64,000 nucleotides of DNA from Methanobacteriota archaeon (GTDB taxonomy: Archaea; Thermoplasmatota; E2; DHVEG-1): assembly GCA_963769885.1 (NCBI GenBank), contig CAVYNH010000006.1:128001-192000 (forward strand). The letters run 5' to 3'. Positions 31,254 to 56,684 of the stretch are shown here, one piece after another. The notes under the pieces were generated by a model, which worked only from the letters and a program-made list of their open reading frames with translations, searched no databases and was not told the DNA's origin. Position numbers and translations under genes: made by a program. The first letter of the stretch is position 1; each line of letters begins with the position of its first letter.

Positions 31254-31788
31254 TTAGACCGAGGCGTAAAAGTCTTTGAGTTCGTCGAGCTTGGGGTTGA
31301 GCATCCCGCAGATCTTGATGGAGAAGATGTCCTCCAGCAGGAGTGTCTCGCGGACGAGGGCGGAGTAGCGCTTGTTGATGAACTCGATGAACTTCTTGGC
31401 GCCGGAGATGTCTTTGGCCGTGAAGCAGATGATGCCGTCGGTACTGGCCGTGTAGGACGCAGGCGGTGCGGATATAGATGCCGATGGACTTGGCGCTGCT
31501 CTTTTTGAAGGCGTTGATGAGGTCTTCAACGGCGTTGCCCAGCGGCTCGTTTGACCGCTTGATGAGCAGGAAGTAGTGGCGGACACCTTGCTTCTCTTTA
31601 TCGGGGACCGCGGTGTACCCCCAGATGGTTTTGTTGCTTTCGAGCCGTTTTATGATTCGCCAGACCTTTTGCCTGGAGAATCCGCACTGTTTTGCTATTT
31701 TATCGATGCTTTCGTTTGAGTTGCGCTGAAGCTGCTCGATGACCTTCTTCTCGTCTTGATCGATTTGTTTTTTGCTACTTTTGGCCAT
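31254..31788 (-). CDS. Lrp/AsnC-family regulator with an apparent +1 frameshift at ~31440 (likely sequencing artefact)
   Basis: HTH IAKQCGFSRQKVWRIIKRLE. Removing one base at 31440/31441 joins LHGQY to DGIICFTAKD...FYASV. Confidence 0.8.
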
Positions 31789-32116
31789 AGGACTCTTGCC
31801 TCCTTGGGATTTTTTTCTCCTCTCTAGATTGTTTTACGGCGTGTTGGGTGTCTATCCTGGAGAAGGAAATCACCCGGGTCTGTGTTGGTTAAATGTTATT
31901 TTTGTGTTGTAACAGGCTATTACAAAGCTCCTTATAATGTTTTTGCACAACATTTATATTACGATTCAATTCTGCGGTATTCTTTGGACAAGAAAGACAA
32001 CTAACGTTCCCTATTTATAGATTTCCTTTTTTATTTATAGCGAATAGGCGAAAAGAACGGGGAAATCGGGTTTACCCCATGCATTAATATCATCCTATCA
32101 TATCCTGAGAAAAGCC

Positions 32117-32482
32117 ATGAACCCCTGCCAGGCCATCCGTTGCAGCTACTGCTGCCAGCACACCAACATGCTCCTCACCGCAGAAGACACGAAGCGCATT
32201 GAGGCTCTCGGACACCCCCCAGCCACCTTTCAGAAACCCGGGGCGCTCGGGATGCAGCTAAAGAACACCCACGGCCACTGCGTCTTCCTCAAGAACGGCC
32301 AGTGCACCATCTACGACGCGCGGCCGCAGGGCTGCCGGCTCTACCCGATCATCCACAACCGCACTCTCGGCGGGGCCATCTGCGACGACGCCTGCCCACG
32401 CCACACGGACTTCCCCCTAACACCGGAGACGAGACGGCAGCTGCGCCGACTCATCGAGACCCTGTTCCCCGACGGCCTCTAA
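32117..32482 (+). CDS. YkgJ-family Cys-cluster (Zn/Fe-binding) protein
   Basis: C...CSYCC, CVFL...CTIY..RP.GCRLYP. Confidence 0.85.
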   Translation: MNPCQAIRCSYCCQHTNMLLTAEDTKRIEALGHPPATFQKPGALGMQLKNTHGHCVFLKNGQCTIYDARPQGCRLYPIIHNRTLGGAICDDACPRHTDFPLTPETRRQLRRLIETLFPDGL

Positions 32483-32593
32483 CCCGATTTTTTTCATATT
32501 GCGGCCGAGGACGACGCCGAGCACCACCCGATCAGACCAACCTGCATGTACTACACGGGCTCCTTCGCCAGTAAAAGAAGCGGAGAACCCGCC

Positions 32594-52990: not shown

Positions 52991-54187
52991 ATGCCTGGGT
53001 ATTTAAGGGAGAGAACACGCGGTATGGAAGAAGAGGTTAAGGCACGCATCTACTCGGGAACGCTCTTTGGGTTCTTTCAGACCCTCTTGATGGCCTTCGC
53101 CATGCTCATCCCCACTTTCTACTTCCGCTCCCTCGGCCTCTCCCTTGCCGCCTACGCCGTGCTCCTTTCCATCGGCGATATCGCATCCTTCATCATGAAA
53201 CCGGCCCTCGGATGGCTCACCGACCGACACGGAGAACGACTATTCATGATGCTCGGCGGCATCCTCTTCATCATCAGCCTCTTCCTCATCGGACAGACCA
53301 CGGACCTCCTCCTCATCGCCATCCTCAAGATCGTCTCCGGCGTCGCCAGCGCCCTCGTCTTCATCCTCATCCTCATCTACTCGCTACGAATGGTCAAAGA
53401 AAAACCAGAACGCAAAATCGGCGCCTTCGCCGGTGTCTACAACCTCGGCTGGGTCGTCGGACTCAGCGGCCTCTTCATCCTCGGCATCCTCTACACCACC
53501 TACCCCATCAAGGAAGCATTCTACCTCATTCTCATCGTCGGTATCATCTGGATCCTGCTTATGTTCCGATTCGCCAAACATTACGAAAGCGTGGTCTCCG
53601 TCAAGCTCACCTTTTCCCACCTCAAAAAAATCCCCACACTCATCGTCTTCAAAAGCATGGACCTCGCCATGTTCTCCGCCTTTCTCTTCTACCTCATCTA
53701 CAACGCCCCCAACACCGCCCTCTCCCTGCCCAAGACCACGCTTGTGGTCATCGTTGAAACCCTCCTCTTCGCCGTCTCCATCTACCTTGTCGGCAGGATC
53801 TCCACGCCACTGCTTCGCCGGTACTGGGTCCCCCTCTGCATCACGTTCCACCTCCTCGCCGCCATTGTCATGCTTTTCGCGGTTATGATAAATCAATACT
53901 ATCTCTACTTCCTCGTCGCCATCTTCATCGGCATCGCGGGCGGCTTCATCGACATCTGGATCTACACCCGCATCAGCGAACACTACGAACCCAAGGAAAA
54001 AGGCATCATCGTCGGAACCCTCGGCTGGAGCTACAACCTCGCCACGATCCTCGGCGCCAACGTCCCCGTCCTCATGACACTCCTCAACCTCAACGTCTTC
54101 ACCGCCCTCTTCGTCTTCCCCATCGTTATGCTCCTCACCTACATCGTCTTTATAGGAGCCGCACGAAGGACCCACCTCACCGCTTAG
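52991..54187 (+). CDS. MFS transporter
   Basis: About 12 TM segments and motif A GWLTDRHGER; start may be 53024. Confidence 0.85.
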   Translation: MPGYLRERTRGMEEEVKARIYSGTLFGFFQTLLMAFAMLIPTFYFRSLGLSLAAYAVLLSIGDIASFIMKPALGWLTDRHGERLFMMLGGILFIISLFLIGQTTDLLLIAILKIVSGVASALVFILILIYSLRMVKEKPERKIGAFAGVYNLGWVVGLSGLFILGILYTTYPIKEAFYLILIVGIIWILLMFRFAKHYESVVSVKLTFSHLKKIPTLIVFKSMDLAMFSAFLFYLIYNAPNTALSLPKTTLVVIVETLLFAVSIYLVGRISTPLLRRYWVPLCITFHLLAAIVMLFAVMINQYYLYFLVAIFIGIAGGFIDIWIYTRISEHYEPKEKGIIVGTLGWSYNLATILGANVPVLMTLLNLNVFTALFVFPIVMLLTYIVFIGAARRTHLTA

Positions 54188-54417
54188 CCTTTTGGCCGCA
54201 GCCGCTCGACCTCCGCAGCCGCCCGCTTCCCACTCACCTTGAAATAGAGCACGACAGCCCCCAGCTCAACGCCGAACAATACTAAAAACACAAGAAAGCC
54301 AAGGAGAAGACGGCCCAACGACAGCCCATAGAAAAGAAGCACTGACCCGCTGAACGGGATGAACATCCCAACAACAACCACAAGTAGAATCCTCACGATA
54401 TCCCAATGCCGACTCAT
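54184..54417 (-). CDS. small hypothetical membrane protein
   Basis: 77 aa with two hydrophobic segments; fills the gap downstream of hypF. Confidence 0.55.
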   Translation of the reverse strand: MSRHWDIVRILLVVVVGMFIPFSGSVLLFYGLSLGRLLLGFLVFLVLFGVELGAVVLYFKVSGKRAAAEVERLRPKG

Positions 54418-54469
54418 GCCGACACTATACCGACACCAGCCTCATAAAAATTACCCCTAAAGAAAAAGT

Positions 54470-56684
54470 CTAGTTCTTCGACAACTGCGTCCCCGCAACC
54501 GCGACCTGCCCCACCGAGATGCCCCCATCCCCGTTCGGCACCCGATCATGCACCAGCAGCGACAACCCTGCGTCAGCCACCAGCCGCTCGATCATCGACA
54601 CAATCGGCAGATCATACGAGACCCCGCCCGTCACCCCAACATACGGGACGCCCTCCTCCTGCGCCCGAGCCACCCCCAACCCTACCAATTCCTTCAAAAT
54701 CGCATGGACCACGGAGACCGACAGATCCGCGATCTCACGAGCCGACAACCGCCGCCCCTTAATCTGTTCATCCAACTGCCGGAACACTTCCACCGCATCC
54801 ACCATGTCACCAGACACCGGCGCTGAAAACGAGTACCCTCGGCTTCCCCGCCGCCAAGAACGGCTCTAGCTTCATCGCCGGCTCACCGCTATACGTCCGC
54901 ATCCGACACACCCCCAGATAGCACGAGAGAGCATCCAGGTACCGGCCCATGCTGCAGGTCTGCGGCGACCGCACCATCACCCGCCGCAGCATCGCCGCCT
55001 GCTCACCCGAAAACTCCTTCTCCATCCTCAGCTGCTCAAAGACCGCGAATACGAGCCGACGCGGATCCTTCGTCGCCTGATCGCCACCAATTAACGGAAA
55101 CGGCCGTAGACGACCAACCCGCGCATACCCAGACAACTCCGCATCCAGCACCTCCCCACCCCAAAACGTCCCATCCTCACCGTATCCCAGACCGTCCACT
55201 GCGAGTACAACGCTTCGGTCAACCCCCTGATCAACCAGCAGTGACGCCGCATGTGCCCAATGATGCTGAACCTCAATCAACGGCACATGAAACTCATCAG
55301 CAAGCCCCTTGGCCACCCCTCGAGACGCATACCCCGGATGCACATCCAAGGCCACTCCATCCAGCCGAGGCCTGCCAAGGAACAGACCCATCAGATGTCG
55401 AAGGCTCTGCTCAAGGAACACAGCCGCCTCATCGTACTCCACGTTCCCGATGTACTGCGTGCTAATCAGCCGACCATCGACCGACAACGCTCCAGTGCTG
55501 TTCTCCCCCGCACCGACACCCACTACCTTTTCTTTGAATTTCACCGGGAGCACATCAGGAATGTAACCACGGGACTTGCGTAAAAAGAACCGATGGCCGT
55601 TCCACAGCCGGACGACGGAGTCGTCCACCCGGTTCGGGATCTCACGGTTGTGCAACAGGTACACATCCGCTCCTAGTGAGAACGCCTTCTCGTTCTCGAT
55701 GATCATCGGCTCCCCCGGGAAGTTCGCGGACGTCATCACCAACGCATCTGTCCGCAACGCCGAGAACAACAGCACCTGCAGCCCCGTATACGGCAAGAAG
55801 ATCCCGATGGAGTCCAGGCCTGGCGAGACCCGCTCCCCATCCTTCTTCGCCATCACCACAATCGGCCGCATGCTGCTCTCCAAGAGCCGGCGGTCGCCGA
55901 GGCTCATCTCCGCATACCGCTCCGCCACCTTCACGTCACGGACCATGATCGCGAACGGCTTCTGCGGACGGCCGTACCACTCCCGGAACCGCGGCAGCTC
56001 ACTCAGGGTGCAACACAGATGCATCCCGCCCCAAGATTTGACTACACCGATTTTCCCGGCATCCATGAACCCGGCGAACCGCATCACGGCATCCTTAGAG
56101 CCAAGACTTTTCCTCCGAGAATCATACAGCGTGTAGCGCGGCCCGCACCGCGGACATGAGATCGTCTGCGCGTGGTACCGGCGGTCTTCCACATCCATAT
56201 ACTCACGCTGGCACTCCGCACAGAGCGGGAACCGGTCCATCGACGTCCGCTCCCGGTCATACGGCACACCTTTCGCGATGCTATACCGCGCGCCACAGAC
56301 GGTACAATTCGTGAACGGATACCGATACCGACGGTTCCCAGCAGCACACAAATCATGCAGACACTCCTGGCAGATCGCGGTATCCACCGGGATCAACGAC
56401 TCCTTCTCCCCGGACCGGCTATGGAGAATACGGAATTCTGAGAACGACCGCGAGTCCGACTCACGGATGATCTCGTCAATCACCGCGATCGCCGGCAGCC
56501 GACGCAGCAGCTCAGCAATCAACCGATCCGCATTGCGGTCGACAACAACCTCCACCTCGGAGCCCTTGTTCACCACATACCCATGAACCCCCAGCCCGAC
56601 CGCCGCTCGGTACACCGTCGGACGGAACCCAACCCCTTGCACGACACCCTTGAAAATCAGCTTCTCCGCCGTCTTCTTCGTCAT
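54470..56684 (-). CDS. hypF: carbamoyltransferase HypF with an apparent +1 frameshift at ~54836
   Basis: GVVQGVGFRP, zinc fingers and QHH.AH. Removing one base at 54836-54838 joins KPR to YSFSAPVSGD...TGGV...PNGDGGISVGQ. Confidence 0.92.

Follow-up and report, generated by a model that had tools for sequence, protein, structure and literature searches.

Extra bases at GTAC split conserved genes in the assembly of an uncultured Thermoplasmatota archaeon and point to methylation of the motif

Results

Four genes of the window are broken beside GTAC

The window analysed here is a stretch of 64,000 nucleotides, positions 128001-192000 of contig C6, from the assembly of an uncultured archaeon (G000; 2.09 Mb in 7 contigs, 55% GC) that the named relatives of its proteins assign to uncultured Thermoplasmatota. 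It carries four genes whose reading frames are interrupted, each beside the tetranucleotide GTAC, and a gene for a DNA methyltransferase. An earlier note on this sequence had described the interruptions as four +1 insertions at GTAC; the sequences lie where it placed them and each gene is indeed split there. For comparison we used a genome of the same genus (G001), a closed genome of the same family (G003) and a further relative (G008). The split genes and their extra bases are the following, in coordinates of the window:

31254..31788, minus strand: Lrp/AsnC-type regulator gene, almost certainly falsely split; 177 amino acids (aa) when repaired, with HTH_24 and HTH_AsnC matches in the N-terminal part
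31440..31444 (GGTAC), minus strand: extra base of the Lrp gene; the gene strand reads CAG TAC C GAC for CAG TAC GAC (AGTAC→AGTACC)
47286..47817, plus strand: msrA, peptide methionine sulfoxide reductase; PF01625, E 7e-59; 176 aa when repaired
47750..47754 (GGTAC), plus strand: extra G of msrA; CTG G TAC TGC for CTG TAC TGC (AGTAC→AGTACC on the other strand)
48555..50217, plus strand: gene for the alpha subunit of a 2-oxoacid:ferredoxin oxidoreductase (OFOR); POR and POR_N matches split at the site; 553 aa when repaired
49429..49433 (AGGTACC at 49428-49434), plus strand: extra G of the OFOR alpha gene; CCC AGGT ACC for CCC AGT ACC, repair restoring the GPSTG motif
54470..56774, minus strand: hypF, carbamoyltransferase for hydrogenase maturation; Acylphosphatase, zf-HYPF, Sua5, HypF_C and HypF_C_2; 767 aa when repaired
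54833..54838 (GTACCC), minus strand: extra base of hypF; the plus strand reads AGTACCC for the expected AGTACC

In all four genes the extra base doubles either the G before or the C after GTAC. The Lrp, msrA and hypF sites obey the rule AGTAC→AGTACC, and at the OFOR site the doubled base is the C of GTAC on the opposite strand, within GGTAC. The break costs the Lrp regulator its C-terminal half; when one C is dropped, the protein matches along its whole length the G001 orthologue (HGQYDVLLCFTAKD), which is 87% identical and reads HGQYD at this point, encoded by CAG TAC GAC. In msrA the break removes the final residues, and msrA of G001 (HPEESYCQVVIAPKL) agrees with that of the window only once one base has been dropped, the repaired tail NELYCRVVIAPKLEKVK then agreeing with the G001 tail ESYCQVVIAPKLAKVK.

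The two longer genes are broken within conserved domains. The POR_N profile of the OFOR alpha subunit is matched at positions 2-100 in one frame and at positions 99-228 in the next (Pfam). Its orthologues in G001 (560 codons) and G003 (556 codons) are unbroken and read RPGPSTGVPT, with CCA AGT ACC/ACG where the window has CCC AGGT ACC. All 120 OFOR alpha relatives among the matches listed are single proteins of 516-574 aa, and when other assemblies were searched for a near-identical OFOR protein of full length, nothing above 83% identity turned up. The break in hypF likewise splits HypF_C_2 (profile positions 2-129 and 152-241, Pfam), and the HypF protein of G003 aligns over the junction without interruption of the query, leaving a single base of the window over (tblastn). 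The orthologues of the split genes are unbroken in G001, G003 and G008, and a search of the window with G003 proteins as queries found no further frame breaks. As the earlier note had proposed, deletion of the extra base restores conserved protein: the repaired products of 177, 176, 553 and 767 aa match their orthologues. We conclude that the four split genes are almost certainly intact, each containing one false inserted base beside GTAC.

Two side observations concern these genes and the genomes they were compared with. The Lrp/AsnC-type regulator at 31254-31788 is one of a large set of paralogues (the relatives G008 and G003 gave 12 and 14 matches), and the window holds a second AsnC-type gene at 43106-43498. 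The GC content of G003 is 30% against 55% in G000, a very large shift inside one family; despite this difference the OFOR alpha proteins of the two genomes are still ~75% identical.

GTAC marks frame breaks throughout the genome

To extend the analysis to the whole assembly, 1773 open reading frames (ORFs) of G003 were searched against G000 by tblastn, and loci with adjacent matches in different frames were retained. Every repair position at each locus was then tried and the repaired translation scored against the G003 protein. This yielded 43 frame-break loci, 36 of the +1 type (one base to remove) and 7 of the -1 type (one base to add), and some 30 of the 36 +1 loci contain GGTAC or GTACC. 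Of all genome positions, 0.32% lie within a run of G before TAC or a run of C after GTA. The best repair would be expected at such a position in 0.24 of the 32 credible +1 loci but falls there in 17 (p ~4e-28), and it lies within 5 score units of one at 24 of the 32, against 1.25 expected. Four further +1 loci adjoin GTAC in a slightly different form, and double insertions could account for two '-1' loci, at GGGGTAC and GGGGTACC. The earlier note had judged the coincidence of its four sites with one 4-mer to be very unlikely by chance and had counted a lack of GTAC enrichment across the genome as a refutation; the enrichment is in fact present.

The GTAC events are spread over contigs C2-C7, and the scan detected no GTAC frame breaks on contig C1. 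Only ~1% of the 5090 GTAC sites of G000 are affected. The reverse scan, of G003, gave 8 candidate breaks, none of them near any of its 2998 GTAC sites. Errors of another type are present in G000 too: bases are missing at C4:5170 and C5:48194, in a run of five Gs and a run of six Cs. A missing base in a homopolymer run is a classic long-read error. For a possible second footprint at AGCT, the scan gave two loci among the non-GTAC ones, at GAGCTC (C6:345232 and C6:517053, one +1 and one -1), too few to exceed chance.

Two ways of finding frame breaks without the G003 proteins were tried and set aside. A scan that made no use of homology and looked for pairs of ORFs fused by deletion of one base proved too noisy, with GGTAC or GTACC in 78 of 621 '+1' windows and 58 of 616 '-1' windows. 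A codon-usage test for frame switches left 75% of sites unclassifiable and gave a small excess at GGTAC/GTACC (21 '+1' against 11 '-1').

The extra bases are consensus errors

Independent sequence for a 20-kb stretch of the window, outside which the Lrp site falls, came from public sequencing runs. Runs X1, X2 and X3, from a wetland study, contain a strain ~96-97% identical to that of the window at a depth of 20-35; run X4, with Nextera adaptor ends, contains the same strain (at least 99% identical) at a depth of only ~3x. The contigs of X1, X2 and X3 omit exactly one letter at 49429, in the OFOR gene, and those of X1 and X2 omit exactly one letter at 54836, in hypF. The msrA site coincides with a contig break in X2 and is not among the insertions and deletions listed. 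The remaining single-base differences between X1-X3 and the window are found in homopolymers or in intergenic sequence, and X4 agrees with the window at three of them (44573, 51903 and 51945). The claim of the earlier note that the genes are intact is supported: they are unbroken both in relatives and in the contigs of the ~96-97% identical strain.

These data bear on the possibility that the extra bases are real, either because the genes have become pseudogenes through site-specific mutagenesis at GTAC or because they are expressed by programmed +1 frameshifting. The same-strain short reads of X4 do not cover the sites and so provide no direct disproof. However, real insertions would mean that some 30 conserved genes had been broken at once on six contigs, while same-genus and same-family orthologues and the 96-97% identical strain lack the extra bases and all 120 OFOR relatives listed are unsplit. 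Programmed frameshifting, for its part, has no shared slippery sequence beyond GTAC to act on. We therefore give real insertions very little credence: under either mutation or programmed frameshifting, a single 4-mer would have to account for breaks in ~30 conserved genes whose relatives are all intact. The frame breaks are consensus errors and not mutations.

Two other omissions in the public contigs deserve mention. The X2 contig omits one letter 3 nucleotides past an AGTAC site, at window positions 48899-48905, in an intact part of the OFOR alpha gene, whereas the letter is retained in run X1, which was made from the same sample; X2 may itself consist of long reads and have an error of its own beside GTAC. 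The contigs of the related strain also omit one letter at 54750, in a C-rich run of the C-terminal part of hypF where the frame of the window looks correct, an omission that may be offset by a compensating indel in that strain.

The final C of GTAC is called twice

When events are oriented so that the doubled base is the C after GTAC, AGTAC→AGTACC accounts for 21 of the 25 unambiguous ones, where the background is 25% (p ~9e-10). It is thus the final C of GTAC that is called twice, as the earlier note had proposed, and this occurs mostly with A preceding the motif. The doubled base is the C that N4-methylcytosine (m4C) enzymes acting on GTAC methylate, which fits methylation as the cause.

A basecaller or polisher could also be biased by the k-mer context at AGTAC with no DNA modification involved. 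The preference for AGTAC does show that k-mer context matters, and the small share of GTAC sites affected, together with the presence of other long-read error types (the -1 errors in the G and C runs), would be in keeping with such a bias. A plain k-mer bias should, however, act in any genome, and G003, on whatever platform it was sequenced, has no such break at 2998 GTAC sites. Moreover, the motif is a 4-base palindrome and a documented target of archaeal m4C enzymes, and the genome encodes an enzyme of the matching kind. Taken together, these observations make a context bias without modification an unlikely explanation.

A candidate writer of the GTAC mark

The enzyme in question is encoded in the window, next to msrA:

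45907..46746, minus strand: β-class DNA methyltransferase, 279 aa; PF01555, E 2e-43, 149 bits (cut-off 26.7)
neighbours of the methyltransferase: NosD-like gene, 127-aa ORF, msrA

The protein has TSPPYN near residue 40 and DPFMGSGST near residue 230, that is, the β order of motifs with SPPY as motif IV. SPPY/F at motif IV marks N4-cytosine enzymes, as opposed to DPPY, and the best matches of the protein in the Protein Data Bank are N4-cytosine enzymes. The composition of the gene is host-like, and no restriction endonuclease was found among its neighbours (Pfam). GTAC is not avoided in the genome (observed/expected 0.91). In G001 the orthologue, 83% identical, adjoins msrA as well; a search of 19 genomes of the host family detected the gene in 4, and it was not found in G003. 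The 127-aa ORF (46865-47248, minus strand), for which Pfam gave no match, immediately precedes the methyltransferase gene in the same orientation.

Relatives of the methyltransferase that are 56-68% identical occur in Thermoplasmatota, many Nitrososphaera, Nitrosocosmicus, Methanoculleus, Methanocorpusculum, Methanocalculus and Bathyarchaeia. Archaeal orphan m4C enzymes are documented to act on GTAC (PMC10609329; PMC11033074), and GTA(m4C) has been measured in Methanocorpusculum labreanum and others (PMC4752239 supplement). Among the persistent groups of Table S3 of PMC10609329, HG10 (GTAC, m4C, orphan) is the sole one with members in Nitrososphaerales, Methanoculleus and Methanocorpusculum. 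The candidate writer named by the earlier note is therefore a PF01555 enzyme with SPPY whose relatives have a taxon distribution that fits the orphan GTAC m4C group, and we infer from this its role as writer.

Profile searches of the genome gave four PF01555 matches and one PF02384 match; PF00145 and PF02086 methylases were also sought and none was found. Besides the window enzyme, the genome thus contains these methylases:

C7:49098-50087, minus strand: M.PvuII homologue, 330 aa, SPPF; full-length match to 1BOO, E 5e-103
C1:17112-18551, plus strand: DPPF-type PF01555 methylase, 480 aa; a second copy at C1:896-2128 (minus strand) is identical and N-terminally truncated
contig C4: type IIG-like protein, 941 aa

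The M.PvuII homologue is the only other SPPF/SPPY enzyme in the genome. It lies within an island of ~5 kb with 39-48% GC, where its neighbours have no Pfam match and no restriction enzyme was found among them. Horizontal transfer may have brought it in as a restriction-modification unit, and it may be the writer of an AGCT-related error footprint. The two copies of the DPPF enzyme are inverted with respect to each other on contig C1, which is 77 kb long and has 50.7% GC against 55%; an inverted duplicate on such a small contig of lower GC suggests a mobile element, and C1 may be either that or a mis-binned contig.

This inventory raises the possibility that GTAC is modified by another enzyme or on another base, as GTm6AC (N6-methyladenine) or with the DPPF enzyme of C1 as the writer. 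GTm6AC systems exist (M.PabI and M.HpyAXII; PMC11033074; PMC2588503), and the genome does hold the DPPF-type enzyme as well as the type IIG-like enzyme of unknown specificity. Yet the doubled base is C and not A, the C1 enzyme has the appearance of a mobile element, and it is the window enzyme that combines SPPY, conserved synteny within the genus and the taxon distribution of the GTAC m4C group. We regard another writer or another modified base as improbable, and the window enzyme as the probable writer of the GTAC mark.

Discussion

Our results show that the frame breaks in the window, and those at GTAC throughout the genome, are errors of the consensus. As to their origin, we consider it likely that they are long-read, and most likely nanopore, consensus errors in a genome where GTAC is methylated on both strands, probably as m4C on the last C, by the enzyme encoded at 45907-46746. 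In this scheme, the orphan β-class methyltransferase would act on GTAC and the organism would carry the mark, probably N4-methylcytosine on the last C, on both strands. The modified base would disturb the signal, and basecaller or polisher would add a base, turning C into CC. The addition would be preferred where A precedes the motif, giving AGTAC→AGTACC, or GTACT→GGTACT when read on the other strand, and the error would reach the consensus only where most reads come from the affected strand. Strand-specific and motif-specific nanopore errors are a known effect of base modifications (PMC11610603; PMC11610573).

The sequencing platform, the methylation of GTAC, its chemical type and the link to the enzyme are all inferred, as the most likely account of the data, and several points weigh against it. 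Our evidence for GTAC methylation in this organism is the error pattern itself, and that for a long-read platform is the number of contigs (7 for 2.09 Mb) together with the -1 errors in the runs of five Gs and six Cs. The window enzyme is tied to HG10 by taxon distribution rather than by alignment with a characterised enzyme, and the genome has three further methylase genes (the DPPF enzyme on C1, the M.PvuII-like enzyme on C7 and the type IIG-like enzyme on C4). As only ~1% of the 5090 GTAC sites are hit, an extra factor is needed, be it context, strand balance or depth. Because X4 does not reach the GTAC sites, the missing base has been seen in a related strain and not in the same strain. 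Finally, the published methylation-induced nanopore errors are mainly substitutions (PMC11610603; PMC11610573), and we found no report in the literature of GTAC-specific +1 insertions in nanopore assemblies. On balance we nonetheless lean towards a more specific proposal, that in an uncultured Thermoplasmatota archaeon AGTA(m4C), made by an orphan enzyme of the HG10 type, is read as AGTACC by current nanopore callers, an insertion type of methylation error that has not yet been described.

The practical consequence is that the annotation shows some 30 or more conserved genes of this assembly as broken or split when they are almost certainly intact. They can be repaired by a simple rule, dropping one base at the doubled GTAC flank where the frame breaks, and this rule may also serve for long-read genomes of other archaea that methylate GTAC. 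From the finished sequence, without raw data, the pattern further suggests that GTAC is methylated in this uncultured lineage. Furthermore, the presence of the footprint on six of the seven contigs lends weak support to these contigs belonging together. If AGTA(m4C) is indeed read as AGTACC, archaeal long-read genomes could be corrected automatically, and methylation motifs and binning checks could be obtained from finished assemblies for which raw data are not at hand. None of this is new biology, since methylation errors at specific motifs have been described before, as have orphan m4C enzymes acting on GTAC; the use lies in correcting this and similar assemblies, which carry a known class of artefact with an informative cause.

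Comparison with known systems

M.PvuII (CAGCTG, N4-methylcytosine; 1BOO) matches the enzyme on C7 over its full length, whereas the window enzyme is matched only over the C-terminal 80 residues. The window enzyme resembles instead the archaeal orphan m4C enzymes that act on GTAC (HG10 and HG18, PMC10609329; M.MlaZII, M.MhuII and M.MjaV, PMC4752239, PMC11033074), with which it shares the PF01555 β class, SPPY and the lack of an adjoining restriction partner. Like that group, its family is highly conserved, at 56-68% identity, across Nitrososphaerales, Methanoculleus and Methanocorpusculum. It differs in its host, an uncultured Thermoplasmatota lineage outside the survey of PMC10609329, and in that its GTAC specificity is a prediction.

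The errors themselves are best compared with the methylation-induced nanopore errors of Liu et al. 2024 (PMC11610603) and Lohde et al. 2024 (PMC11610573). In both of these studies, as in G000, errors fall only on a short methylase motif, differ between strands and between contexts, and persist in the consensus of assemblies made from native DNA (presumably so for G000). The published cases are mostly substitutions, at 5-methylcytosine and N6-methyladenine motifs, in cultured bacteria. In G000, by contrast, the error is a +1 event that doubles the C at GTAC, the genome is that of a metagenome-assembled archaeon, and it is from the errors alone that the methylation is read back.

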